A DNA stretch of 20,000 nt from Sarea resinae (GCA_026026165.1 JAPEUD010000066.1:119552-139551); one strand, 5' to 3'. Positions 2,812 to 20,000 are shown, counted from the first letter of the stretch. Numbers and translations are program-made. The notes: generated from the letters alone by a model not told the origin.

Positions 2812-3206
2812 TTCTTTGACTGTCAGGCTTACTACGCGCACTTGCTTGCTGGTCGAACAGCGCCTTAGCCTGTAGGAATTTCTTCGGTTCAAAAGCCTTT
2901 CGCTACCTATACCCTATAGAATTCTTTTTGGCGAAGACCTCGTAGCCATTGGCGTCAAGGTTAATTTTTCAGAAATGTGAATGTGTTAGAGAATAAGGGG
3001 GGGGTAATCCTATTATTACCTATCTTTTAAGAAACTTTGATAATACTATAGTACCTTTAGGTGAATTTGTATATTACATTTTATCTGCTACAAATCATTG
3101 ACTAGCCTTTTATTAGAGTAGGTAATTATTACCTAGTAGGTTAGGTTAGATATTAGAATTATAACCTTAATACTAGTCACCTTTAAGTATCTAGACAGTT
3201 ATAGAC

Positions 3207-3590
3207 TGTTATAAGACAAGAAAATAAAATATCTAGAAGCTTCTACATACCTATAGAAGCTAATAGAATGTAGTAAAACCCTATAGTATATTATAGACTA
3301 TTCTAAGAGATTCTATAGCTATACTAACTAAGTATCTAGAACCTTTTAGAATGTTCTAGAACTATTTAGAAGTCTATAGAGTCTCTTAGACATCTATAGA
3401 ACTTCTATAACATAAGAGTTATATAACTATCCTTTAACTTTCTTATAAAGTATACTAGTATATTATTATTAGCTTATTGCTTACAAATCACTTATGTAAT
3501 TAGTTGTTACTAGAAGTTTCTAGTAAGTTAGTTAAGTCTATATATTAACTGCCTTATATCTCTATAGCTAGAATCTCTAAGTTTATAATA
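3207..3590. mobile_element. Possible RIP-degraded solo LTR of a second retrotransposon family
   Basis: Starts TGTTATAAG and ends TTTATAATA (RIP-compatible inverted termini). Contains repeated TCTAGAA/TTCTA motifs and TATATAA near 3420. No matching TSD found. Confidence 0.35.
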
Positions 3591-4114
3591 TATAATTATT
3601 CTATACTATACTTCTTTAGCACCTTTCTCTACTTATATCTTTGTGCTACTTTCTAACACTTTGTTTAAGCAATTTTATACTGAAAAGGCATTATAGACTC
3701 TTATAATTAAGCTAGTATATAGGTTAGGTTAAACAAATTAGAGGCTGTATTTACTAACTCTATATAGGTTTCTAGAGTAAATAGATTATAGATATAAAAT
3801 CTAATCTAGTAGTAAATTAGGTTAGTTTTTCCTTAGCACTACTATATATAATCTTAAAATAGCTTACAGTTAATAGAAATATATATAAGTTAGTGTTATA
3901 GAATTTACATGTTATAATGTTCCTTAGATTATAATTAAAATGATTTACTAGAGTTTACCTCTATTAATTTATTGCTAAAAGTAACAACTAATAGTAACAC
4001 TTATTATAAAGAAAAGATCTATAAACCTATTACTTTTATACCTTTTTTACCTCTAAACTCTCTAAGAAAAATATGCCTATTAAGTGCTATAACTACCTAA
4101 TAAACACTATATAA

Positions 4115-4741
4115 CTATTTAGAGTAGACTGCTAAATTCTCTATTATTTTCTTTACTAATTATATATCTTTCTACTAGATTATAACTCTATTAGTATAGA
4201 TAGCTATGTTATTAGAGTCTAAAAAGAGCGTTACTATATACTATTACTTTAGAATATTAAACTTAACTTACTATTAAAGAAGCTAGATATATAAAGTTCT
4301 ATTGCTTTCTAAATAGTATTAATAGTAGAGCCTTAGAAATAAAAGGACTTAGATAGATACTAATTAATTACTATTTCTTAGACTAAGTAGTAGAATACTA
4401 TCTTTAGTAATAAGAGTTAGCTGCTTTTTTAATAGTATTTTATCTAATAAAGCGTGCTTGCTAGAAGATATTATATTACTAATATATATTACTATAGAAT
4501 AGTAGATAAAGAACCTACTATTTAGTTTAGTCTTTCTATAGACTTTATTTATTACTAACTTAGCTATAGTAAAAGCTTTATTCTTAGCTAAGGTATTATA
4601 ACACTACTTATCTTATTTCTTATAGTGCTTATTAAAGCTCTTATAGTATTTATCTTATCTACTCTAGTATAACTTTATAACCTTAGAGAGAGTAGAATGT
4701 TTAAAGTTATAGCACTTTATATATTACTTAGTACACTTTAT
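4115..4741 (-). pseudogene. RIP-inactivated divergent histone H3-like gene, 3 exons (4741-4519, 4460-4272, 4218-4115), ~171 aa
   Basis: Minus strand, with RIP changes reversed: M-K-R-T-K-Q start (ata aag tgt act aag taa), ...HRKTKPG|TSALRQIKxYQKS.QLLLPK..F.RLVREI...SFRFQGSAI.AIQEA.E.Y...FF.|DSNNMAIHANRVTIQQKDMQLV. Two GT-AG introns (4518-4461 GTAGGT..CTAG; 4271-4219 GTAAGT..TTAG) keep the frame. Confidence 0.85.
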
Positions 4742-4811
4742 AATTACTATTTAAGTAAGAATTAGTTACTATATTCTATTACTATTAAAAAGACTTATAT
4801 AGAGTAGATTT

Positions 4812-4872
4812 AATAATAATAATAAGACTTAGTAATAATAATAAGACTTAAAGATAATAATAATAAGACTTA
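4812..4872. repeat. Short tandem repeat, 3 copies of (AAT)n-AAGACTTA (~19-22 bp unit), upstream of the H3-like start
   Basis: aataataataagactta occurs three times in succession. Confidence 0.75.
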
Positions 4873-5139
4873 ATAATAGTGTAAGATCTATAAAACAAAT
4901 AATTATTACTAGATACTATTACCTTATAATCTTAGATTATAACTTACCTAACTTTAGAGAATAGTAAGGTAAAGTAGAATTAATAGCTCTAATTAAGTAG
5001 GTATATATATACTAGTTACCTTTCTAAGTTACTAGCTAGAATATTAAAGAAGTATAATAATCTAAAGGAAATCTATAGAGGTATAATAGCTAAAAGAGAG
5101 AGGTAGTAAAGTATATTAGTAAAAAGAGAGGTGTACTAC

Positions 5140-5526
5140 TATAAGGGATTAAACTAGATCGCACTAGATAAGTGCTAGATAGTCTTAAAGATATAGGAAC
5201 TGCTAAATTGTAATAGCGCTGCTATACTTAATAGTTGTTAAGTGTGTTATTATCTTAGGTCTTACTACTAATATATCTTAGAGAACTTAAATAGGTAGTA
5301 GAACAAGCGTGTTAATTAATATAAGCTATTAGCCTATAGCTTAGTAACTAAGTAATAAGAGGAAGAGAAAAACTAATGTGCTAACTACTTGCTTAACTAA
5401 ATGCTAGAAAACTAATAACTAAATGCATGTATAAAGAACTAATAATACCTCTTTTTAAACCCCTAAGGAATATAACCCTACTACTAACACCTAATAACTA
5501 AGCTATTACTAGTTTACCCTATTATA
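5140..5526 (-). repeat. 3' LTR (387 bp)
   Basis: Collinear with 16515-16901; by manual count about 25 differences, all transitions, no indels. Confidence 0.95.
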
Positions 5527-5538
5527 TCCTTCTCTCCT
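5527..5538 (-). promoter_or_regulatory. Polypurine tract (plus-strand primer)
   Basis: Plus TCCTTCTCTCCT = minus AGGAGAGAAGGA, directly abutting the 3' LTR. Confidence 0.85.
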
Positions 5539-5978
5539 ATAAAAATAAAGTTAGCCCTTAACTTTACTAACATATAAAAGACATGTCTGTTAAGGAAAAG
5601 GTAGGAAAAGCGTTCCTATAACTTGTTGCCCTTACGCTTTCTAGTTAAGCAGTAGAGAGATAGGTCTATTACTTGTCTATACAATTGTAGCATTTCTTGT
5701 ATAGTCTAGCTATTAAATAGATTAGACAACTTATTCCCTAGTAGCAGAGCTTCTTAAACACTTTTATAAGGAGATGTTTTAGGATTTAATAATGCTGCAG
5801 TTTTCTACTTCTTTAAAAGACAGGCTAGGAATAGTCCTTATTGTTTGCGCTTATTAGGTTTAGAACTCCTAGCCTATCTAGAAGAACCTTTGCTAATTAT
5901 ATTACAAGCAAGGTCTTAAGAGAGTTAGTCTATTAGATTAAGCAATTGCATTGCTTTTATTATTAGTTAGTCTTAAAC

Positions 5979-8894
5979 TTAGGTAAACTCTTTACTTGCT
6001 GCCTTTTCTATATTATTGTTAGTAAAGACTAGCTTAATATCTAATTCAACAGCGAACTTTCTCTTAGCTAGGCTAGAGGAAACAATTTTGTAGAGGTCTT
6101 CTAAAACATCTAATTCTTCTAACTGTTTAGAGTCTGTATTATTATTAGATACATGTGTTCTGTGTTCTATAGAGTAGAAATATAATTTGTTTCTATAGAG
6201 GCGCATTTCTATTCGCTTAAATACCTTAAAGGCTTTGTAGTATTAGCTTAGAGCTTAGCGTCTCTATTGCTAAAGATATCTAGTGACCTTATCTGTATTA
6301 TCCTCTATAAGAATTCTTTGCTCCTCTATAACTTCTAGCTTGTTAAATCTTCTCCTTCTAACTAAGTAATTAGATGTAGCCTCTAACTCTATTAATAAGA
6401 CTGCTGCTAGAAATTTACCTAGGACCTCTCTATACATATTAGGATGCCTGCTTAGGCTGTTTAGTAGAGGTGTTAGGTCTCTAAAACATGCAGATATATT
6501 CTCTTAAGTTCCTAACTCTAAAGCCTCTAGAGTCTAGTAGTTAGTATAGACACAAACTTTCTACAGATAAATAACGTAGCAGCAAGCTGTTAGCTTTTTA
6601 GTAGTCCTATAGGCGGCCTTAGGATTTGTAACTCAGAGGTCCTAGGCTTAAAGAGGCTATATAGTCTTTATTATGCTAAATCTTTCTTTGTCTGCTTTTA
6701 TAACCTATCTTCTATTAATAGTAGTAACTTTCCTAGTGTGTGTGTATAGCTTTAGGTTGTGTTTCTTAACTTCTTTAGCCTAAAGTTTAAAGGAATAACT
6801 TATGCTAAAGTAGACTATAGTGCAATTTTGTTTATCCTTAGGTTTAATAGCAATAGCGAATTGAATTATATTTGCGCCTTAGTCCTTCTTAGCTAGCTTA
6901 TAGACATTCTAGTCTAAATAGTAGAATCCTATATAGTCGCCTTTAGATAAGGATTTAGTATAGTAAGGATAGCTAATAAGCTGTATATTCTAGTCTAGCT
7001 AGTAGAAAACAGTAATTAGGTAATGCTACAGGTCTATATTAATTAGCTGCTAGAAAAGAGAGTAGAACATTATCTAAACCTAACTCTAATTAGCTTTCCT
7101 ATTAACCTTGCGTTAATAATGTTTGTAGCACGCAAATTCTTCCTTTACTATATCTGCTAGTCTAGGTGCTAACTCTATCTATTAGTAAGCTTTGTTAATA
7201 ATAACTGATCTATTTTTGTTCTAGTCTGCTATATGTGTCTTAAACTGCTGTTTAGTATAGGTATAGGTAGGTATAAACTCCTCTATATTAGTTTCTACCT
7301 TTAACTAGTATAACTCTCTAGCATCTGCTAGGCGCTTAGGTTAGATCTTCTTGCTAAACTAAATGTAGGTTTCTTTCTTAACTATAAAATCTACGAAATC
7401 TCCTAGCTAGGCTAGGAGCTCCTGAAATTATTGTCTTAATTCTATGTCTAAAGCATTATTCTTTATGCTAATACATGATGCAAGTGCCCTTATATAGTTT
7501 TAGCAAAGCTATTTAGTATTATATATTATATTAATTGTCTTCTACATTTGTAATAGCTTAATCGCGATTGCAAGGGTGGCTAGTTTCTTGCTTGCAACTG
7601 CATCTAAGAGTAAAGCTAGGACCTATAGAGTACATTTACAGCCTTTAACAACTAGCTTCTGTTTGACTTTAGATTCCTTTAACAGAATCTTTAGGCCTAT
7701 CTAAGAGTTCTTAACTAGTTGTAATGCTCTAATAGTTAAATTTAACATGATATTCTTAGCCCTAAGTAATAACAACCTAGTAGCAAGTGCTTTCTTTTCT
7801 AATTCCTCTTCTAGAAACTCCTTAGGTTTCTTCTCTTTATTATTATTAGCAGCAAGTCTCTCCTTTATAGCGTCTTTATAATCTGTCTTCTTCTTTAGTA
7901 GATCTTATAGGCTATTCTATTCTAGGTTAGCTTCTCTAAGGATCCTATATATATTAATAAGTGCTCCTACTATCTAAAGGTCTTTCTTAGTAAACAAGAA
8001 GATTTCTAACTTTTTACCTTTCTCTAACTTTTTAAGAGCCTTTGCTAGTTGTTTCTAATCCTTAGAAGTTTGCTTAACAATAGATTTAGAAAGCCCTTGC
8101 TTTCTTCCTCCTATAAGTTGTTGTATAGCTTCTAAGTTTGCTATTCTTATTGCCTCTTTAAATAGATACTAAGCTATAACATGCTTTATATTATCTAGGT
8201 GATTTCTAGACATTTCTGCTTCTAGCAAATAACAGGCATTATTATCTCTCTACTTGTTTCTAATCTTTTATCTTCCTTTAGCGATACGCTTCTTCTTATT
8301 ATAGGATTCCTTAGCAAGATTAAATATCTTAAGGATGTTGCCTATCTAGTGCGTCTTAATATACTTAGCTAACACTAAGTCCTTTTTAACTTCTTTAACA
8401 CTCTATTTATACATCTATAAATAACAGGTATAATGCTTGCTTATCTTATTAATAAAAGTCTTATAGAAGTCGACTTTTTCTTAGAGGTTAGCTATTATAC
8501 TTATATAAGTGTGAATAGATTCTACATTCTAGAATAGGATGCTAGAAATAGTTATAAACATATCTTTTGCCTTAAGCGCTGTTGTACTAGGTGTAGCTAG
8601 TGTAAGAGAGGTGTAGAGTAAGGTAGAAGATATATTAGTCTCTTAGTTTTCTTCTAGTTAGTCCTAGAGATTAGACTGTGTAATATGTCTTAGAGAACTT
8701 AACTTAGCTGCTAGCGCTTCTAATATTAAGGTGTCTACTTCTTCTTCTTAGGTATCGCCTTTAAATTCTTTACAGATAATAGAGAGATTAAGCTGTGTAG
8801 TAAGAGTGATAAAGAGGTCCTAGCTATTGCCTTTAGATAAGGTAGATAGGGGTGCTAGGGTTTCTTCTTATGTAGACAATTGCTAGCCAGCTAT
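5979..8894 (-). pseudogene. Retrotransposon-borne extra ORF (ORF3, ~970 codons): S/P/T-rich N-terminus, helical/basic region, CxC...CxxH motif, C-terminal 2OG-Fe(II) dioxygenase-like (PhyH-type) domain
   Basis: One frame throughout (same as track ORF 5979..6206), broken only by RIP-type stops. De-RIP: EEFACYKHHQR...MFYSLFQQL...LISYPYYTK...GF.HLDWN (HxD 6920-6912)...GANMIQFAIAI..ED.QNCT...RVTNPKAAHG (distal His 6611-6609)...RRYVIYPW (Arg 6584-6579). Start (aaaATAgct, 8894) and end are approximate. Confidence 0.72.
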
Positions 8895-9947
8895 TTTTAG
8901 CGATTCTTATCTCCTAGACTGTCTAGAAGATTAGAGAGAGCAAATATCCTTAAGGGTATAAAAAGATTTTTCTCTTAGGAATGCTAAGAGATTGTAAATA
9001 ACTGTAGAGTGTGATTAGATAAGAGAAGTAATTGTGTAGATTTTCGCTTATTATCTAATAAGGTGTTAGACAACAAGTGCTAATAGTAAGTAAGCTAATA
9101 AGGTAGAGAGTATAAGCAAGCTAATTAAGAGGAAGAGTTTGTAATAGGTGAATAATATTAGAAGAGCAGATAAGATAGTAGCAGCAGAAATTGCATAAGA
9201 AGTAGGAAAATATTTAGAGAAGATAGAGGTAAGCAAGTAGAAGATGTTTTCTTATAGTTCTTACTTAGAGTGCATATAACTAGATTCCTACTAATAATTG
9301 TTAGATATTAGCGTAAAAAAAGTGTTATCTTGCTTTTCTTTTATAGTGAATTTTAGCGTGTTATTAAGCTAAAGTAGTAGCTGCAGCGTTAGTAATACAC
9401 TTAAGCAAGGTTCTTTGTTATCTATATTGCTTCTTTATTTACCCTTACTTTTATACATGTTTTGCACCTAAAAGTAAGGTAAAAGTAAGATAAATTTAAG
9501 ATAAGGTTAAGCAAGTAGTAAGAACAATCTTTGCAACGCTAACTAAGGCGAATAGTAGTTGTAAGGCAGATATATAGTGCTTGTGCAAGTTAGGAATACT
9601 TGTCATACAATTTTACTAACTTATAGCGTGTTATTAAATTTAGATAAAGGCTGCATACTCTATAGTGTTACTCTTTAGGTCTAACTAGAAGATTAAGCTA
9701 GTAGAGTTTGTTTTACCTTAATATAAGCTAAAGAAGTGAAGTAATATAATGTGTAATAAATTAGAAATGTTATTACAAATTGTTAGGTATACTATACTAT
9801 ACAATATAAGCTGCGCCTCTTACGCCTCTAGCAAGGTAGACTGTAGTTAAAAAGATCTAGCTAGATAAGGTTATATATATACACACCTCTCTCTAGTTTC
9901 TTTTAAAACTTCTAGCTAGGCTAGAAAGTTTTATGCTATATAATTAG

Positions 9948-12900
9948 CTAAGGTAGGATAATAACAGCAAACAATCTTCTATAAAGCACTAAGGCCTATA
10001 AGGCCTTATATTCTTCTTAAGTTACTTGATTATTATTATCCTTAAGGTCCTTAGACTAAGTATTATTAGTATTATTTGTAGACTTGTCTTTAATTAGATA
10101 ATTAGGTATAGAGGTAGGCGATCGCGTGTTCCTTGCAGAATTAGGTAGAGAAGGTTAGCATGTAAATTTCTTTAGACAATTTCTAGGTGCAGTGCTGTTT
10201 AACTTAGTGCTGTTAAGTTTAGTAAGCTAGTAAGTTCCTTAGACAAAGTCAGCCTATATAACACAATAGAGACCTATCTACCTATAGCAGAGTTTGCTTT
10301 AGAGCGAATAGTCTATAGCAAGCTTAGTGTTATAGAGTAATACTATATTATTAACGTTAAATTTATCTAGGCAGAGATTATAAACTTTATTAAATGCTTC
10401 TTTACCTTGTTCACACATGCAGTGTAGATATAGCTAGGTTTCTTATAGATCTTTATTGTAGCGTTGCATTTGCTAAGCCTATAATGCTAGTAATTCTGTA
10501 GTAGTTCAGACTAAATTCTAGTCTAATACATGCTAGATAGGAAGGTCTAATTTAATAGGCAAGACTGTGTTATATCTGTATAGCACTTAATAAGGTGTCT
10601 AGCTAGTAGAAACTCAAACTGTAGTGCAGTCAGCCTATAGGACTATATGCAAGTTCTAGACCTAATTTCCTATGCCTCTGTTTATTATCTTAGCTAGTGT
10701 ATTAATAATAGAGGTATAACCTCTTTCTACTAGGCTATTTGCTTGCAAGTAGTATACTAAGACTATAACGTGATTGATTCTATACTTCTCTATAAGAACA
10801 TGTATAAACTGCTTGTTCTCTAGTCCTCTATTAGTAACTAGCTTTTAAAAGCATCTGTAGCAGCAGATAATATCTTTGTAAAGGAATTTAGCAATAGTAG
10901 CAGAGGTAGCGTCTCTTATAGCGTGTGCTTCTACCTAGCTAGAAAAGTTATCCTAGGTAACAATAATGTTCTTCCTATTCTAGTAAGCTAGTATATGTAT
11001 TATGTTAAGGCTAACCTTCTCCTAACAGGCAAAAGACTAGGTTAGGTGTAAGGCCTTCTCTTCTTATTTAAAGGCTCTCTCTTAACACTTCTAGCAGCTC
11101 CTAATATATGTTACTACTTCTAGATATAGATCGCTCTACTAGTATCTATCTGCAATGCGCTAATAGGTGCCTTCTTAGCCTTTATATCCTCCTTAATTGT
11201 AGGCCTCCTCTAGGATATAGGCTTTGTTAGTATCTTAGTTAATAACTCTTTAAAGTAGTATATTCTTAGAGGCATACTTAAACAAGTGTTAGTCGCGAAC
11301 TAAGAATTTTAGGGCGTGATTCTTAAACTTGCAGAACTCTTTTGCGCTTATTTCTGCTAGCTAGACTAGAGAAAGAAGCTATTATACAATCTTCTGCAAT
11401 TTGTCTAAGTAACTATCCTTAAGAGGTAATAGAGGTTCTGCCTCTACACTGTCGCTATTTACAGATATAAGAAAGACTTAAACAAGGTATAACTCTAAGT
11501 CTATTATGTTATTAATGTCTGCCTTGTTTTCTATATTAGCGATATCTTCTGTAGTAGCTAGCTAATAAGATAATCTATTAGCAGCACTATGCTTTTAACT
11601 AGGAACATGTTAAATAGTAAAGTTAAAAAGGCAGATCTATACAAGCTATTAAGTGATAAGAGCACTAGGAAGGTTAGCTGCAGGCATATTAAGTTATACA
11701 ACTAGAGTATTAGCATTAAGTTCTACTACAAAGGTCTGACTGTATAGGTAGACTTAGACTTTCTTTAGCGCCTTTAGTAGGCCTTAGCATTCTTACTTTC
11801 TTGCATTGTACTTTTTCTCTGCGTTGTTCTAGAGTCTACTCTTAAATCAAATAGAGTGCTGTTTTCTAGTCTCTAGATTAACCTGCATAAGGTTCGCTCT
11901 CTAGCCTTCTCTACTAGCATTAACTCTAAGTATAATCTCTCTTTCTCTTAGTCTATAGATAATTGTCACTAGTGCTAGCGCAGTAGTAAGAGTGTACTTT
12001 AGCTTATCTATAGCTAACACCTAATCTAGTCCCTAGACAAATTTAATATCCTTCTTAAATAAGATAAAGATTAGCCTAGCAATAATAGCAAACCTGTTAA
12101 TAAAGATCCTATAGTAGACACATATGCTAATAAAAGCCCTAGCTTCTATAACATTCTAATAATTAGGCTATTCAACAATCTTTAGCACTTTAGTGCTGTT
12201 AGAGTGTTAGCTGTCTAAGTTGCAGACATAGCTAATAATCTTAATGCCTTCTATATAGAATTAAGATTTCTCGCTAGATACTATGTAGCTAGACTGCTCT
12301 ATATCTGCTAGAACCTTATTAAGTAATTAGATATACTTAGCTATATAGCGCCTGATTCTAGGTAAAATTTCTTTGCCTTTATAGTTAGATTAAGGCCCTT
12401 TAACACTAATATTATCTAGAAAAGGTTGAGTAAGATTAGGAATGTAGTTGCTAAGAATCTTTATAATAATGCAGACAAATTACACAACTAAGTTTATAGC
12501 TCTTTAAGGTAAAGTCGTCTAGTAAAGCAGGCCTAGAGGTGTTATAAAGGCAGTTATATCCTAGCATTCTTCTACTAGTTCGATCTAATTATATCCTAAG
12601 AAGAAATCAATAAGTAAGGCGACTTACATACTAGCAAATTCCTTAGAAAATTCTTCTACTAAAGGCAAGAGGTTTATGTCTTAAATTATAACCTTGTTTA
12701 TTGCTATTGCTGTGTTAACTATGCAATACTTTCTAGACTTCTTCTTAACTAGGAACTATAGGTTTTAGTACAGTCTGTAGCAGTGTTCTAGTAACCTATT
12801 CTTTAATTGTTCTTATAGCATTTTAATAACCACTTTGTTTAGTGCTTATAGAACTAAAAAACTATTAGCTTGCTAAGCAGTATGTAGAATAGTTTGTATC

Positions 12901-13535
12901 TCTTACACTAGCGCTACCTCTTTTCAGACCTTGCTAATTTCTAAGAAGTCCTACACAAGGGCCTTCTTACAATTATAAAGCATTGTAGTAAGCATCTCTT
13001 TCTCTTAATCTAATATACTATCTCCTACAACTATTATCTCTAATCTTTTAGGCGTAATATAAGATCCTTTTTGCAACTTTAAAAACTTTAGAATTAGCAA
13101 CGTGTTAAAGTCTTCTTCTAGACAGTCTAGGTCTTTTTTGTGTAACGTTCTGTAGTTTAACGCGTCTTTCTCTTCTAACTCTCTTTTCTAGTCTTTTGCT
13201 CCTCTAGGCTTGCTACTATCTAATACTAAAGTGTTAACTAGTCTAACCTTATCTCTCTTTTTCTTATACATTGTATAGATATAGGCTAAGTTAACGTTTC
13301 CTTTTAGATTTAACTCTAGATTAAGTATCCTCTTAGAAAACTAGTAAGTTTCCTCTTAACCTATATATAACGCTTTAAACTCCTTAACCTAATCATTATT
13401 CTCCTAATCTGTCCTAGAGAAATCCCTAGCCTTATTATCTAGTTTCTACTTATCTTCTTCTTCTAAGCCTTGCTATATTAGTCTTATAGTTATAGCAAAC
13501 ACCTGCTTAGGATAGCGTCTGCTATCTAGTTTAAA
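9948..13535 (-). pseudogene. pol: pol (reverse transcriptase - RNase H - integrase), RIP-inactivated
   Basis: De-RIP motifs. RT: LIDFFSGYDQI, TAFMTPLG, LPQGATNS, catalytic FLDD (12422-12411). RNase H: VDASGEGWG (~11920) and AADGLSR. Integrase: HHCC (11201-11085), D (11006), D (10832), E (10727), GPY module. No chromodomain; 3' end approximate. Confidence 0.93.
13526..13535 (-). promoter_or_regulatory. -1 programmed ribosomal frameshift site (U UUA AAC followed by UAG)
   Basis: In the gag-PR frame the minus strand reads tgT TTA AAC TAG; a -1 shift gives exactly the RT frame. Confidence 0.8.
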
Positions 13536-15913
13536 CAGTTCTAGCTAGAGAATATATTAGCATGCCTTCTATTAGACAAACTTTCTACTTGTGCTGCACT
13601 AAATATCTTTAAATAGCGTTAGTCCTCTAAAAACACAGTGCATATTATTGTTCTATTATCCTACACCTTAGTGTGTATACAAGCAGCAATCTAATACAGT
13701 TGACTAAGGATAAGTAGTTGATCTAGTTAAGTAGTAATAAAAATAGGTACCCTGCTAGTAATACCTCTAATATTGACTTTAATATCTTTAGCGCATCCTA
13801 TAAATAGTGCTAGCTTTCCTTTAATACTAATTATTATAGTAGCTAGTTAAGGAGTCTAACTTAGCCTAAGATTCTTTGCTGTTAATAGACTTATTAGATA
13901 TATCTTAGCACTACTATCTAATAGTCCTCTTATTCTCTTTTTTCCTTTAATGCTTACTTCTGCTATTATATATCTAGCAGTATATAACGTGGAATTTAGT
14001 ATTTCCTTATTAGTATAATTATTGCTTTCTATCTTTCTAACTATCACTAGGCGATCTATATTATGCTGTCTAGCTACAAGATAGCCTTCTAACCTTCTGC
14101 CTAAAGAGTATAACTTATCTCTAAGGTTCTTAAAGAAAAGCTTCTGAACTTTAGGCGCATTTAAAAGAAGATCCTTTACTATAACGTGGTTAAGCTGCTA
14201 ATCTAGTATTATATCTATAATAGAAGCAGGGTTAGCGTCTTCTCTAAGGTAATTAGATAATTAGCGTTGATAAGCCTTTTGCTAATATATTTCTTCTACC
14301 TTATCTATTAGCTCTAGCTTAGCAAACTCTACTCTCTTTTTAGAACTGCTAGCTAGACTAGGACATTATAGAGGCTGTTCTTTATAACAGACTATATCTC
14401 TCTTCTTAAGAACACAACTGCTCTAGTACGTCCTAGGGCAGATGTTCTTAGCTGCAGGCAACTTTTCTTCCTCTTAAATTCGCCTCTTATAGACTCTAGC
14501 ATCTAGGTCTTATATAGGTTTCTATATAGCAGGGTTAGATCCTTGCCTAAGGATCCTCTTAAGTTGTCTTACTAAATAGACATTTAATTAGTTATAGTTA
14601 TTAGCTTCTACATCTGTGTTATCTAGCTTAAGATCTGCTGCATAAATAGAACTAACCCTTACTAAGTTAACTCTTAAACTAAGGCTTAGTTGCTTCTTCC
14701 TTTTATTATACATCCTTTTCTATTCTTTGTTAGCAAACAGGGCTTAGTATTTGCTAGGAGGAATATACAACTCTGCTTTACCTTGTTCTTTAGGACCCTA
14801 ATATATTTAACAACGTTTGTTAAAATAAATCTTTCTACTTATAAGGAGCTGCTGTATTAGCAGGCAATTAGCGAATCTATAGCGCTAGTCACTGCATCTA
14901 AAATATCTAGTCAATTAAGCACAGTTTGTATCGCGAGCTAGATCTGCTCTATTATTCTGCTAGCTAGTCTAGTAGTTTAGTGCGCTTGCAACTTTTAAGG
15001 CAGAAGATAGTATCTAAGTAAGGAGCTTAGCAGTGTTTGTAGCACTTGCTGTAACTGCTTTAATTAGAATTATTAAGCTAGCTAACCTATCTGCTAATTT
15101 GTCTATAACCTTATTAACCTTCTTACTTGCTGTTCTTTCTATATAATCTTATACAACTAGAGGTTAGAGTAGCTCTGCTATAGCAGCCTTTAGAGCTAGG
15201 TGCTATCCTTTAATTAAGGTCTTTACTATCTTTATTAGCTCTGTCTTATTCAGCTTCTGCAGTGCCTGTATAGATTGACATTACTTAATAGCAATGTTAA
15301 AGATCTTCTTAAAGTCAATATTAGTAGAGTTGTAATTGTCTAGGTCGATATAGCCTTATGTGATAACTTTAACTTAGATCTCTTAGAGAAGGCCTTAGAG
15401 AAACTATAACATACAAGTATAGGCATTAAGCTTGTTTTTCTAGCATAGGGTTTAAGAGATGCTCTAGAACTAACAACAATATTAATAGATCTCCTCTGTA
15501 TTTAAACAGGGTTTCTCTTTAAGGGCTTTAAGGTAAGTTTAGGAGTTGATTTACTGCTCTATATCCTAATTAGAGTAGTCTTTTAGCAGCGATTTCTTAA
15601 ACTTATCCTAATCTATAAGATACTCTAGCATAGTCTTAATACTGCAAGACATAATACTCTTATAATAACGTAGGAGCCGCTTAAATATCTCTGTTTAGTT
15701 AAGCTAGTAATCCTTACACAGTCCTTTATATCTCTTAAAGAACTCTATAGCGTTCACCCTGTTAAAATATAGTACGCTATAGGTCTTAGAGGATAGTATA
15801 GGAGTAAGATAATATATAGTAGGTAGGAATGCAGTACTAGCAGCTATTGTAGGTAGTGTTAGTAATTCTAGTGAACTGTCTCCTAAAAAGTGCAGAGAGG
15901 AACGCGTTTGCAT
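13526..15913 (-). pseudogene. gag: gag-protease ORF, RIP-inactivated
   Basis: Track ORFs 15704..15913 (de-RIP APYFDGANATEFFERYE) and 13856..14047 (LLDSGAE aspartyl protease, Asp 13918-13916) share one frame. Zinc knuckle C-x2-C-x4-H-x4-C at 14905-14864. Confidence 0.88.
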
Positions 15914-16496
15914 AGTAGTAACAATTGCAGCTGCAACAAAGTTTACTGTTTCTTAAATAATTGCTTAAACAAATTATGTTAACTTATAAAGGCACTTGTC
16001 TTGTTTGCTGCTTTTAACTTTCTTATGTTTAGACCTTGTCTTACTCTTGCTAATCTACTTATCTCTAGTAGCGCCTTAAACATCTCTTAGCGCACTCTTT
16101 AACGCATAATAAAGCTGTTCTTTCTATCTGTTCTCTTTATATACTACGCAATAAACTGCCTTATTGCTAAATAAACTGTAAGCTGTTAAGGATTGCCTCT
16201 AACCTCCTTAGATAAATAGCTGTCGCCTAACTATTTTAACAATAAGATCTAGCTAGTCTAGTAGAATTTTTCGTTGTGTAATCTCTAAACTTTATGTCTT
16301 TGTTTCTAAATTCTTTTAGGGTCTCTACAATTCCTACTTCTTATCTCTCTTATATTGTGCTAACCTTTTAGAGTCTTAATTATACAGGCTAGGTTTTGTA
16401 CTAGCCTTGCAGATCTAGCAACCCTTCTGTGTATCCTTTAAGCAGTGTTTATACTTATTTGTAAAGCACTTTCTAGTTAAATCTATGTTGTTTAAG

Positions 16497-16514
16497 CCTT
16501 GTATAGGTTACTAA
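16497..16514 (-). promoter_or_regulatory. Probable primer-binding site
   Basis: Minus TTAGTAACCTATACAAGG directly follows the 5' LTR; TAG is RIP-compatible with TGG (complement of tRNA CCA). Cognate tRNA not identified. Confidence 0.6.
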
Positions 16515-16901
16515 TATAAGGGATCAAACTAGATCGCACTAGATAAGTGCTAGATAGTCCTAAAGATATAGGAACTGCTGAATTATAATAGCGCTGCTAT
16601 GCTTAATAGTTGTTAAGTGTGTCACTATCTTAGGTCTTGCTGCTAATATATCTTAGAGAACTTAAATAGGTAGTAGAATAAGCGTATTAATTAATATAAG
16701 CTATTAGCCTATAGCCTAGTAACTAAGTAATAAGAGAAAGAGAAAAACTAACATACTAACTGCTTGCTTAACTAAATGCTAGAAAACTAATAACTAAATG
16801 CATGTATAAAGAACTAATAATACCTCCTTTTAAACCCTTAAAGAATATAACTCTACTACTAACACCTAATAACTAAGCTATTGCTAGTTTACTCTATCAC
16901 A
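16515..16901 (-). repeat. 5' LTR (387 bp)
   Basis: Direct repeat of 5140-5526; minus strand begins TGTGATAG and ends CCCTTATA (RIP of ...ACA). Confidence 0.95.
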
Positions 16902-19088
16902 CTATAAGCGACTATAGGTGCGCTATATAACCTATATTACCTACGTTATAAATAGTTAACGCTATAGTCTAATATATATAGTAGTTCTAGTAGCAGCTAT
17001 AATAGCACTATATATAGTGCAGTGTAGTAAGCAAAGTATATACCTAGTATGTACTACAGTAGCTAGTTTATGCTAGTAGTGCAACTTTATAAACTTAGCA
17101 CTTATAGATAGTTCTAACATACCTAGCCTATAGGGCTATAGGGTAGGTTATAGCCTTAGCGCTAACTAATTATAGAGTAAATTTTTATGAATTTTTATAA
17201 TTTCCTATTTAGAAAGTCTTAGTGTTAATACCTATAGCACTAGAGCTACTTTCGCTTAAATTTCGCTTAAACTTTTGCTTATATAAGCAATTTTCGTGTA
17301 GCATAGGCATTTCTATATAGATAGAAGAATTCTATATAGATATAGGTGTTCTATATAGACACTATAAAACTATATAGCTACTTAATGCATTACTATTTCT
17401 ATATAGCTAGGTACTATATATATATATTAAGGTACAAACTATATAGACCTTTTATAAAGGCTACTGCTAATAGAGGTGCTATATATAGCTTAGTGTAGCA
17501 TAAGGTAACTACTTAGTGTAGTTTAGCAACATTTAGGTAAGCTAAGTAGAGTTATTAGCTATATAGATTAATAGAGGCGCTAGCTATTAGGGCTAGTATT
17601 TAGTGCAATTATAAAGTTAGTGCCTACTAGTAATATCTATATCTATAGTATTAGTTTTGTATTGCTAGAGTGATGCTAGCACGCTATAGTACACTAGCCT
17701 ATTTAATTGTGCTATTTCTACCTACTCTACTATAGCTAGAAGCTTAAGAGGTAGTCTAACACCTTTTCTCTTTTTACTAATATAGAAATATATAAGTAGT
17801 AAGAGAAAGAATAAGCACTTAGATATATAGGTAAGTAGAAGTGTAGTAGTATAGTATACTATATATACTAGTAGTGTAACTCTATATAAGGATTAGGTTT
17901 TAGCATAAAAATCATTAAATATCTTAAATGTAATAAATGTAAAAAACAGTGAATATAAGAAACAATAAATACAGTATATACTATAGAGTTATATAACTTT
18001 TAAAGCATTATACTTATAGCTTTTAACTTCTTTCTTTCTTAACTTTTTTACTTCTTTCTTTAACTTATTACTTATTACTTACTACTTCTTCTATCTCTTT
18101 TACTATTTAAATTTTCACTAATTATCTACAAACTTAATTTCTATTCTCTCTAGATATTGCACTATATAATAGTAACAGTATATAGTAACTAAGAATAAAA
18201 GTCTATACTATATTAGCTAAAAATTTAGTTTTAGAAAAAGATAGCTAATTTCTCTACTAAAACTTCTTAAAAGAGTATACTTTTATTACTCTAGTAAGTT
18301 CTACTATTATATTACATAATAGTGACTACAGATAGTAACTAATACTTAAGTTAAAAGAAATTTAGATATAGATTCCTAATTTAATAATCTTAATCTAATC
18401 TAATAATCTTAATCTAATAAGACTTAATGTCAGACCGCCTCCTGGACTTCTAGCTATGGTAGAGTAGGTAGGAATAGCATGATCGAATAGGCTAGTGCAC
18501 TGCGGCGTGCTGGCGTCACCCTGGCGATGCGGAACTGATACTATGGATATGGATATTGCCAGTAGGCACTGACTTCGTAATTGCACTGAACGCTGGCCCT
18601 AATAGCCAGCGCCCCTATTGATCTATATAACTGATGACCCCGCTCGGCTTACCCGAACGTTGCCGAACCACACCAGGTGGTTACCCTGCGCTGCGCCGAG
18701 CCGCATACGGCACCCTTATCGGTAGTGGCCCTCACAATTACCTCCCCTCCTAGGACCTGGTCCTCTAGGTCCTTTGTTCGCGATGTATGACATCATGGTG
18801 TTGAGTCTTTGTCTCGCTGGCGCCTCGGTGGCGTTGCCATTCGCCGCAAACAGTGAATTCGTGTAGATAACAAAGGGAGTTCTTTGTCCTGTTTGCTTGG
18901 TTTGCCAAACGCCGCGCCGGGGTGGCAGCAGTGAATAGACAGAGTGAATGCTTCAAACCGTCCGCATTAGGCATTCTCCCCATCGCTTGGAGGTCGCTTA
19001 GCCATGGGTGTGTAGGTATAAAACGTAGGTGATCCAGTGCGCGCGCGCACGATCGAACTTTTCGCACCACGTTTCAGGTACGTTCCAT

Positions 19089-19786
19089 ATGCCCATCATG
19101 AATCCCGGACGCTTCGCCGCGCCCCCGCCACGTGTGAACCAGCCTGCCGCCGCCCTCCGAAAGCCTGTGGAACTGAATCGGGACGTCTGCCTCCGCTGCG
19201 CTAAGGTCATCGGGTCCACGCCAGATATCGTCTGTACGAAGGCCTCATCAGCTGCGAAGTGCACACGATGTGCTCGGTTGCATAAGAAGTGTAGTCAGGT
19301 AAGTGACTCCCACATGGTGCCAGCCAGGCTCTGACCCAGCGTGCCGAAGGTGCCTACGGTCTTCCGCAAGCGCCTGAACCGGCTCACCAAGGCGGCTGAC
19401 GTGGTGGTTGGCTACGCCGATGACAACCCCGCCAAGGAGCCGTCGGCCGCTGCGCTCCGCGATCTACAGAGGCGATTCACTCGCCAGGTCGAAGTCCACG
19501 TGAACGCCGCCAACAAGCACCCGTCCGACAACGCGCTCCGTACGGCCGTGGCGACGGAACGACTCGCCGATGGCGTCGAAAGCCTCAATGATATCCTCCG
19601 GTTTGCTGTAAGTCGCACGTGGAACGCCAGCGATGCGACAGCGCTAACCCAGTCATCTAGTTCGATTTGCCGTCCGTTACGCGCGCGGGTGAGAGTGACG
19701 ATGAGGATGACGACGATACGACTGCGCCTCCGGGGGGGTCCGGCAATCAGGCCAGTCAGGGCCAGGCGGGGCAGACCGGTCAGTGA
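19089..19786 (+). CDS. Small (197 aa) protein with atypical six-cysteine Zn-cluster-like motif and acidic tail; exons 19089-19298, 19350-19607, 19661-19786
   Basis: Introns GTAAGT..CTGAC..AAG (19299-19349) and GTAAGT..GCTAAC..TAG (19608-19660) join the track ORFs in phase 0. Motif C-x2-C-x11-C-x8-C-x2-C-x6-C; C-terminal ESDDEDDDD; stop TGA 19784-19786. Confidence 0.8.
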
Positions 19787-20000
19787 TGGGATGGTGGTTC
19801 TTTCCGTTTCCTTTGTATACTAGATAGCTTCGGGTTCGCGCCGGGACGGCGCCGGGGGTTAATTTCACTTTTCTTTTCCGTGACTTCATCTCCCCTCGTG
19901 ACCGTAGCATCGTAGCCCTATAGCCCAATAGCCTTCCACAGAGACCGTACGCCGTTAGCACGCAATCGCATCGCAGGCCTACCCCTACGTTGGCTCGCTA

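Follow-up and report, generated by a model that had tools for sequence, protein, structure and literature searches.

Introduction

Genes for Fe(II)- and 2-oxoglutarate (2OG)-dependent oxygenases have been described within transposable elements before. Ty3/Gypsy retrotransposons of Phalaenopsis orchids contain an open reading frame (ORF) for an ALKBH5-like 2OG dioxygenase with N6-methyladenosine (m6A) RNA demethylase activity in vitro, according to the parts of PMC9289625 that deal with it, and fungal DNA transposons (Kyakuja-Dileera-Zisupton, or KDZ, Helitron, hAT, and others) encode TET/JBP dioxygenases, as outlined in PMC12730594. Here we describe a 20,000-nt stretch of Sarea resinae DNA (JAPEUD010000066.1:119552-139551, called the window; window positions are coordinates on that stretch) containing a Ty3/Gypsy element degraded by repeat-induced point mutation (RIP), with a third gene, ORF3, lying after pol. 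It is likely, in our view, that the element was killed by RIP and that its cargo is a genuine PhyH/Gig2-like oxygenase gene under selection, and we are confident that ORF3 is genuine, selected cargo of predicted catalytic activity.

The orchid elements resemble those described here in being Ty3/Gypsy retrotransposons that keep an extra Fe(II)/2OG ORF with an intact HxD...H and that formed subfamilies after its capture but, as portrayed in the same parts of PMC9289625, they have a plant host, acquired the gene recently within one genus, and encode an AlkB enzyme. The present elements are from Pezizomycotina, encode a PhyH/DUF1479-like enzyme (structural Z of 21, against 8.6 for an AlkB homologue), form deeply diverged lineages, and are known from sequence. 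The TET/JBP transposons likewise have fungal carriers, a 2OG gene thought to serve the element, and repeated exchange of context (PMC12730594, in its outline of these elements), but they are DNA transposons, whereas ORF3 is carried by a long terminal repeat (LTR) retrotransposon and its enzyme is not TET/JBP-like (Z of 8.2 for NgTET1). In position, ORF3 recalls the env-type third ORFs of Ty3/Gypsy elements and retroviruses, being a separate ORF between pol and the polypurine tract or 3' LTR, but env is a membrane fusion glycoprotein whereas ORF3 is predicted to be a soluble enzyme.

The best structural matches to the ORF3 catalytic domain are YbiU of Yersinia pestis (4rgk) and Gig2 of Candida albicans (6akz), but these have 12% sequence identity to it, are single-domain proteins of ~415-450 aa, are not transposon-associated, and are without the ~450-aa N-terminal extension and Cys cluster of ORF3. 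PHYH (PF05721, 2a1x) has the same fold (Z 13.6) and HxD...H...R arrangement, but its substrate is a fatty acyl-CoA in peroxisomes, nothing points there for ORF3, and most members of the ORF3 family, including that of the intact element L019 described below, score below the PF05721 threshold. A full-text literature search, with Repbase, subscription journals, and supplements outside its scope, turned up no LTR retrotransposon of fungi described as encoding a 2OG oxygenase, PhyH-like or otherwise, in agreement with the initial annotation of this locus, which knew of no functional description of such cargo. No mention of oxygenases occurs in the text of PMC3248453 (its Figure S1 and supplements lie outside that scope), the sections of PMC5987419 considered as an earlier description of the ORF3-bearing element concern something unrelated, and for DUF1479/Gig2 only fish Gig2 papers surfaced. 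The ORF3 elements extend the known theme of transposon-borne 2OG oxygenases to a different host or carrier, another enzyme branch, and a different age.

Results and Discussion

A RIP-degraded Ty3/Gypsy element with a third gene

An AT-rich block of ~15 kb (GC 0.22-0.35) lies between genes of normal composition at both ends of the window. Within the block, the RIP indices TpA/ApT and (CpA+TpG)/(ApC+GpT) are 1.7-2.0 and 0.28-0.74, respectively, whereas the flanking genes give 0.57 and 0.86 for the first and, in the same order, 1.33 and 0.99 for the second. The two LTRs of the element (Table 1) align over 394 columns, 369 of them identical (93.7%), and 23 of the 25 differences are transitions; TG starts the 5' LTR, and the 3' LTR has TA at the same place (G>A). 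The LTR alignment revealed no matching 4-6-nt target-site duplication, and no tRNA-complementary primer-binding site was recognised; both may have been erased by RIP. A tblastn search of the window with the intact L019 pol gave a single 1051-residue segment (L019 residues 120-1148, 38.7% identity, 612 bits), and Pfam detected RT_RNaseH (4.4e-12, residues 1486-1570) and Integrase_H2C2 (9.6e-6, residues 1728-1775) in 16400-10041 translated through its stops. Along its length, pol of the window is collinear with that of L019, in which RVT_1, RT_RNaseH, Integrase_H2C2, and rve follow in order, with integrase last. The pol domains, the LTR pair, the polypurine tract, and the long match to an intact pol bear out the earlier designation of the element as Ty3/Gypsy.

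ORF3, in the same frame as pol, is enclosed by the two LTRs and situated after pol and ahead of the polypurine tract. Its first codon, 8894-8892, reads ATA, one G>A step from ATG, and its terminal stop is at 5981-5979. Across 980 codons (8900-5961) there are 58 stops (37 TAG, 20 TAA, 1 TGA), against 110/979 and 121/979 in the other two same-strand frames. Mononucleotide shuffles of ORF3 contained 78.8 +/- 8.8 stops with a minimum of 54 (n = 500), the observed number being ~2.4 standard deviations lower; a low stop count is by itself modest evidence and no proof of a gene. Homology settles what the stop count could not, and it is because of the phmmer search together with the alignment that ORF3 can be called a real gene. 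Exhaustive phmmer searching with ORF3 found 380 representatives (clusters at 50% identity) at E <= 1e-3, 177 at <= 1e-10, and 8 at 1e-30, the best at 1.8e-38, and the homologues are mostly 800-1000 aa long. Those with names are all "hypothetical" or "uncharacterized" proteins of Pezizomycotina, apart from one JGI record named PhyH, and come from Candelina, Coniocarpon, Trichoglossum, Venustampulla, Sclerotinia borealis, Coccidioides posadasii, Coleophoma, Rhinocladiella, Vezdaea, and two Penicillium species.

ORF3 was aligned over its full length to 22 intact homologues, and not just the catalytic part but also the N-terminal helices and the Cys cluster align, with one frame being kept back to the CxC motif at 7640-7632. 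Residues 558-887 of L019 ORF3 matched window positions 7160-6165 by tblastn as one segment (E 3.6e-31); because an intact relative aligns there as a single segment, there is no frameshift in that interval. The CxC and the later Cys of the cluster are invariant in 23 aligned sequences and the His of CxxH is conserved in most, its column being Tyr (TAT) in the window; to judge from this pattern of residues, the cluster is probably a zinc site. Runs of four basic residues, [KR]4, occur in 57 of 128 full-length homologues versus 21.8 in shuffles (maximum 32), and 30 of 57 placeable runs fall 200-300 residues before the SYPYY motif, clustering just ahead of the Cys cluster, where they could represent a nuclear localisation signal. 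A model of the 220-residue N-terminal domain is helical (predicted local distance difference test score, pLDDT, 87.7), with no Foldseek match at E <= 0.001, and the best VIA-align Z, 5.7, reflected a helical hairpin alone; as modelled, this domain is without a recognisable fold, which does not show it to be new. No ORF3-pol fusions were found among proteins of 1727-4930 aa, which is weak evidence.

Table 1. Features of the Ty3/Gypsy element in the Sarea resinae window.
Feature	Position	Strand	Basis or remark
Ty3/Gypsy element, RIP-degraded, 11.8 kb	5129-16897	-	LTR pair
5' LTR	16505..16897	-	aligned to 3' LTR
Leader and presumed gag-protease, heavily RIP-mutated	13305..16504	-	position only
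pol (reverse transcriptase, RNase H, integrase), single frame, many RIP stops	10164..13304	-	tblastn and Pfam
pol end and pyrimidine-rich spacer, no coding signal	8895..10163	-	stop density, similarity searches
ORF3, RIP-inactivated, ~970-aa protein with C-terminal PhyH/Gig2-like 2OG-Fe(II) oxygenase domain	5979..8894	-	homology
Cys cluster CxC...CxxH	7494..7640	-	window reads C-K-C ... L-C-stop-N-Y
Catalytic double-stranded beta-helix domain	6165..7160	-	tblastn; fold from model of intact relative
Former His-x-Asp iron ligands, now Tyr-Leu-Asp (TAT TTA GAC)	6912..6920	-	alignment to homologues
Former distal His iron ligand, now Tyr (TAT)	6609..6611	-	homologues read P-H-G
Former Arg-Arg, now Cys774-Tyr775 (TGC TAC)	6576..6581	-	homologues read R-R-T-[ML]-L-P-W
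Polypurine tract AGGAGAGAAGGA	5527..5538	-	read from sequence; 4 nt from 3' LTR
3' LTR	5129..5522	-	aligned to 5' LTR

Catalytic residues and the reversal of RIP

The initial annotation had read an oxygenase signature from the window by reversing presumed RIP changes, and the homologues allow that reading to be compared with unmutated copies. The His-x-Asp...His triad and the Arg are nearly invariant (at least 90% in 126 aligned sequences), and no tabulated intact copy, element-borne or free, has lost HxD, the distal His, or Arg-Arg. The coordinates proposed for the HxD site, 6920-6912, are exact: the His of F-R-H-[IML]-D is present there in at least 90% of homologues that have escaped RIP, rather than Tyr, and the TAT of the window is derivable from CAT by C>T. 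The distal His predicted at 6611 is Tyr in the window and His in intact homologues. The Arg pair was correctly identified as Arg but lies 10-11 codons past the distal His, not 9-10, and only one of the two TGC codons proposed for reversion to CGC, that of Cys774, is an Arg site, the second site being TAC. The register of the pair is fixed because P>L (CTG) and W>stop (TAG) follow directly downstream. The second Arg of R-R-T-x-L-P-W, 11 residues after the distal His, is conserved, and we take it, by analogy with PHYH, to bind the C5 carboxylate of 2OG. The strand residues IQFAIAI (6866-6846) and QNCT (6830-6819) lie between the HxD site and the distal His, as had been described. Because intact relatives carry His-x-Asp, the distal His, and Arg-Arg, the TAT-to-CAT and Arg reversals of RIP were right, and because both triad His are now Tyr, the window copy of ORF3 is inactive.

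At columns conserved in at least 80% of the 22 homologues, the window has the conserved residue at 53 and departs from it at 62. Changes of C>T or G>A alone suffice for 39 of the 62 differences, compared with a shuffled mean of 14.8 and maximum of 26 (n = 2000), and the stops at well-conserved columns replace W, R, and Q, the residues expected from RIP. The other 23 differences are not derivable by RIP, and ordinary divergence is therefore present too; they include one stop, the TAG at 6644 in a Gly column. The earlier description of an unshifted frame holds over 7160-6165 and, in the full-length alignment, back to the CxC motif, but its statement that the frame was broken only by RIP-type stops does not.

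Predicted fold and enzyme family

The fold was assessed on a relative and not on the window copy: residues 400-890 of the intact, element-borne L019 ORF3 were modelled by AlphaFold2 from a 126-sequence alignment, giving a pLDDT of 94 and a predicted template modelling score (pTM) of 0.84. Foldseek returned 266 matches to this model in the PDB at E <= 1e-3, those listed at the top being PhyH-type 2OG enzymes (SnoN/SnoK, proline hydroxylase H11, EctD, GriE, EvdO1, YbiU). An independent wide search with VIA-align over 48,161 representative chains was led by YbiU/DUF1479 (4rgk; Z 21.2, 276 aligned residues, root-mean-square deviation 3.1), with Candida Gig2 (6akz) at Z 19.6 (282 residues, 3.5), human PHYH (2a1x) at the value given above, and small-molecule 2OG oxygenases at about 13-15. 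As modelled, the catalytic domain is a double-stranded beta-helix of the PhyH/Gig2 branch. Among 19 homologues searched against Pfam at E <= 0.01, PhyH was found in six and was the sole family found, the other 13 having no hit; two of the 19 pass the PhyH cut-off of 22 bits (36.1 and 22.8) and four fall below it, and the ORF3 of locus L042 passes at 23.7. A profile search of PDB sequences had a best E of 0.15, which is no meaningful match, and PhyH/Gig2-like clusters in the ESM Atlas, at 0.87-0.88 (below 0.9), are leads only. The His and Arg of unmutated homologues, the beta-helix model, and PhyH as the only Pfam family together support the original call of a PhyH-type 2OG-Fe(II) dioxygenase.

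These comparisons bear on the suggestion that ORF3 is an anti-silencing demethylase, which would oxidise 5-methylcytosine, RNA m6A, or methyl-lysine on the chromatin or RNA of the element. Fungal hosts use RIP and cytosine methylation against repeats, and the window is itself marked by RIP; ORF3 is under selection inside the element (see below); and ~450 extra N-terminal residues, the Cys cluster, and the basic runs would fit a nuclear, macromolecule-directed enzyme. The two earlier recruitments of 2OG oxygenases by transposons offer precedents, as sketched in PMC9289625 and PMC12730594. The nearest folds are nevertheless PhyH and DUF1479 (Z 13.6-21.2), whereas AlkB-type, TET, and JmjC demethylases reach just 8.2-8.7 (NMAD-1 8.7, ALKBH3 8.6, JMJD3 8.2, NgTET1 8.2), and no AlkB, TET/JBP, or JmjC hit was obtained with Pfam in the 19 homologues at E <= 0.01. 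As far as the model goes, such low scores lower the case for membership of those families but leave room for an analogous activity. The window copy has been mutated by RIP anyway, as have 29 of 31 L019-like copies (besides L019 and L021), and no member of the PhyH clade is known to us to use nucleic acids or histones as substrates. Overall, we think it unlikely that the enzyme removes a methyl mark from DNA, RNA, or histones, and equally unlikely that it serves as an anti-silencing demethylase.

ORF3 as a gene of related retrotransposons

Relatives of ORF3 were collected by a pattern scan of JGI metagenome contigs, which found 343 stretches encoding them; 80 loci were kept and searched with the intact gag-protease (gag-PR), pol, and ORF3 of L019. 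Forty-two loci were evaluable, their contigs extending 4 kb or more ahead of the point where ORF3 is estimated to start, and 31 of these have a same-strand pol directly upstream of ORF3. One family accounts for 26 of the 31 (the intact L019 and L021 and 24 RIP-mutated copies, mostly from one metagenome), three (L029, L030, L032) are one element assembled three times with an integrase remnant only, and two (L020, L047) are separate lineages; L051, a circularly permuted contig, is one more element lineage.

The order in intact elements is LTR-gag-pol-ORF3-LTR. L019 has LTRs at 1289-1415 and 11654-11780 that are 100% identical, a 1059-aa gag-PR with a visible CCHC knuckle and Pfam Asp_protease_2, a 1214-aa pol, and an ORF3 of 986 codons from stop to stop with Met at codon 37. 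L047 (a 2365-aa gag-pol and a 1240-aa ORF3) and L051 (a 2168-aa gag-pol with a chromodomain, then ORF3) are laid out as L019 is, even though their ORF3 catalytic regions are only 38-43% identical to its own, and in RIP-mutated copies LTR pairs that are 92% identical and 10.4 kb apart enclose both genes. In every element lineage found, ORF3 occupies the same position and orientation, after pol, before the polypurine tract or 3' LTR, and on the same strand. Identity between lineages is 31-50% for pol and 25-43% for the ORF3 catalytic region; the two genes have therefore been associated for a long time or have come together again and again.

The ratios of non-synonymous to synonymous substitution (dN/dS) between L019 and L021 are 0.232 for gag-PR, 0.072 for pol, and 0.082 for ORF3, in which 186.5 synonymous and 59.5 non-synonymous differences were counted; within ORF3, the catalytic part has a ratio of 0.046 and the N-terminal part 0.108. 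The best case for ORF3 serving the element comes from this constraint, which in an element lineage is as strong on ORF3 as on pol. The recurrence of the pol-ORF3-3' LTR order in divergent lineages and the purifying selection on ORF3 uphold the earlier proposal of integral cargo at the position of env. An unrelated mobile element or gene fragment nested in one Gypsy copy would also yield a 2.9-kb frame here, and the unusual length of the element (11.8 kb) and the non-coding spacer of ~1.1 kb ahead of ORF3, absent from intact relatives (the pol-ORF3 gap of L019 is just 451 nt), would suit such an insertion. The same gene in the same place in L019/L021, L020, L047, and L051 speaks against it, as do the uniform RIP load and composition across pol and ORF3 and a repeat scan in which no inverted or direct repeats bracket 5979-8894, the sole find being one weak 53-nt, 72% match to 15095-15147; we consider a nested insertion very improbable.

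Two of these loci have further peculiarities. The first 167 nt of the 10220-bp L051 contig are repeated at its end (99.4%), with ORF3 split across the ends, and this circular permutation could reflect a one-LTR circle, a tandem array, or an assembly effect. Near the ORF3 of L029 are two distant members of the oxygenase family, a 1044-aa ORF (L029:4929-8060) and a 405-aa ORF (L029:21405-22619), with ~23% identity over up to 807 residues and E down to 2e-20, forming a local paralogue cluster.

Transcription

RNA-library contigs from three studies cover the element at ~93% identity to L019. The 7988-nt contig X1 extends from the gag-PR end (L019 3963) through pol and ORF3 into the LTR junction, and another of 3236 nt (X7, depth 39.5) contains ORF3 and the LTR only (L019 8536-11780), gag and pol having a depth of 0-6 in the same run. 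The RNA contigs are compatible with a separate ORF3 transcript. In the parts covered, no canonical joint of a spliced ORF3 mRNA was seen, and the sole gap within ORF3 (53 nt, ends TA..GG) does not resemble an intron. About 210 nt upstream of the ORF3 ATG, at L019:8527-8581 (also L021:7371-7389), there is a CCAAT and a perfect palindrome, TTTTCCATGCC-G-GGCATGGAAAA. Among the 80 loci, the palindrome TTCCATGCCGGGCATGGAA was found upstream of ORF3 in L019 and L021 only, and ~50 nt around it are also joined to unrelated flanks in RNA contigs, at high depth; the stretch may be a promoter element or a small repeat.

Free-standing copies and the limits of the association

The initial annotation asked whether homologues consistently lie between pol and a 3' LTR; a same-strand pol precedes ORF3 at the majority of evaluable metagenome loci, and the remaining 11 of the 42 are free-standing. 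Nine of these are distinct, intact loci of normal GC (L002, L003, L005, L014, L026, L028, L040, L042, L064), and two are RIP-mutated L019-like copies. Annotated single genes also occur on megabase contigs of Penicillium, Coccidioides, Sclerotinia, Rhinocladiella, and others, and close relatives among the free copies share neighbour genes, as ordinary genes do. Genes of other mobile elements abound around the free copies (integrase core, Tc5/DDE_1, Helitron helicase, DUF6589, and helicases of the DEAD and SNF2 types). Helicase genes, either DEAD/Helicase_C or SNF2, repeatedly adjoin them (L010:6704-8648, L018:4884-6917, L003:12380-14495), those of L010 and L018 being 25-29% identical. At L042:11514-14355, the free copy is immediately followed, on the same strand, by a 450-aa ORF and a DUF6589 protein (E 1.5e-60), and this family member may belong to another kind of mobile element.

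Phylogenetic tests used 18 rows of known context, with L030 and L032 left out as duplicates of L029 and the window row left out because it is too degraded to place (end branch 2.98). The element-borne label needs three changes on this tree, at least two of them forced by well-supported branches, and the element-borne L020 nests among free copies. From this interleaving it follows that the gene moved more than once between retrotransposon and free states, in one or both directions. A further approximately unbiased (AU) test of 9 element-borne against 49 other sequences (p 5e-69) was discarded as unfair, as the others had rows of unknown context, one of them identical to the ORF3 of L051.

A number of results weigh against ORF3 being the element's own enzyme with a macromolecular target. 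More than a quarter of the evaluable loci, 11/42, are without pol within 4 kb or more upstream of ORF3; the AU test rejects a single split between element-borne and free copies (delta lnL 52.4, p = 0.00036, for groups that were named after an earlier tree had been inspected); and, given the interleaving, repeated capture of a host gene could apply. The 31 loci with pol are not independent, and the support therefore amounts to about four lineages plus the window. As for the enzyme, the RIP-damaged translation of ORF3 had no Pfam hit at E <= 10 and none in a word-indexed protein search, the ORF3 proteins of L019, L021, L047, and L051 had no Pfam hit either (for L019, none at E <= 0.001), and with only two of 19 homologues passing the PhyH cut-off the family assignment rests mainly on predicted structure. 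The substrates of YbiU and Gig2 are, to our knowledge, not established, and the other fold neighbours act on small molecules or free amino acids; because of these neighbours, a metabolite substrate is favoured as much as a macromolecular one. Lastly, RNA-library contigs cannot show transcript ends or exclude DNA carry-over, and no canonical splice joint was seen in the parts that they cover.

Much of this would be expected if ORF3 were an ordinary fungal gene for a small-molecule oxygenase, captured several times as a passenger with no role in transposition. Intact free-standing copies at nine distinct loci, single genes on megabase contigs, neighbour genes shared with close relatives, element-borne copies that are not one clade, and PhyH-clade neighbours that are mostly metabolite hydroxylases all agree with a passenger, and because the fold neighbours act on small molecules, a metabolite substrate stays a serious rival. 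Captured passengers would not, however, be expected to have identical position and orientation in every element lineage found, nor is it easy to reconcile with them that pol and ORF3 are both deeply diverged, as would result if they had long been together; a retroelement passenger of no use would be expected to decay, whereas the dN/dS of ORF3, 0.08, matches that of pol; and several of the free loci sit among integrase core, Tc5/DDE_1, Helitron, and DUF6589 genes. On balance, we judge a passenger gene to be improbable.

A possible mode of action

Returning to ORF3 as selected cargo, the extra gene probably helps the element to spread, because intact relatives keep and conserve it. The window element probably belongs to a Pezizomycotina group with three genes, gag-protease, pol, and ORF3. 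The ORF3 protein, of ~900-1000 aa, consists of a helical N-terminal region of ~200 aa and a predicted disordered linker often ending in a basic run, followed by the CxC...CxxH cluster and then the putative PhyH/DUF1479 (Gig2-like) Fe(II)/2OG oxygenase domain; in the window copy, the catalytic His and the Arg pair have been lost through C>T and G>A changes. In active elements, ORF3 would be made as a separate protein, perhaps from its own transcript, would enter the nucleus, and would hydroxylate a macromolecular target in a way that raises the propagation of the element. We lean slightly toward a macromolecule over a small metabolite as the substrate, and the target may be a host or element protein, a modified base being less likely. 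The fullest version, that an old and widespread Pezizomycotina Ty3/Gypsy group encodes a nuclear PhyH/Gig2 oxygenase that favours transposition by acting on a component of host silencing, on a repressive mark, or on the Gag or integrase of the element itself, is put forward tentatively and may well be wrong in some part.

Other features of the window

The presumed gag-protease region has 65 stops in 999 codons in one frame versus 126 and 106 in the others, and tblastn with the intact L019 gag-PR gave no match in the window at E <= 1e-3. In the spacer, 8901-10040 (~1.1 kb) has 7-9% stops in all three frames, tblastx and blastn against the 80 related loci gave no match, and the GC skew of the plus strand is strongly positive.

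Around the element, 3000-5128 and 16898-18400 are additional stretches of AT-rich, RIP-like DNA (GC 0.22-0.30, TpA/ApT 1.7-1.8), in which no pol or ORF3 similarity was found and which is probably the remains of other repeats. A 310-nt inverted repeat, 75% complementary, pairs 17452-17761 with 18428-18737. The C-terminal part of a MOR2/PAG1 (Tao3/Furry-like) cell-morphogenesis gene of normal composition occupies 2-2811 on the plus strand (Pfam MOR2-PAG1_C at 424-2811, 1.2e-106) and ends ~200 nt short of the RIP-affected block. At the other end, 18700-20000 is GC-rich (0.58-0.61), with overlapping ORFs of 100-160 aa on both strands that had no significant Pfam match, and is probably part of an intron-containing gene.

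Implications

LTR retrotransposons rarely keep extra genes. A conserved and selected enzyme at the env position in several old fungal lineages implies some function worth the cost of carrying an additional 3 kb. Recognition of ORF3 gives a name and a context to a large family annotated as hypothetical proteins in lichen fungi, moulds, and some pathogens, and the theme of transposon-borne 2OG oxygenases reaches fungal retroelements and another branch of the enzymes. If the proposed mode of action is true, mobile elements would have recruited 2OG oxygenases independently for a third time, and fungal retrotransposons for the first, and the free-standing "hypothetical proteins" of the ORF3 family would be escaped or domesticated copies. 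The ORF3 elements also make a concrete test case for enzymatic resistance of retrotransposons to RIP, methylation, or other controls by the host.

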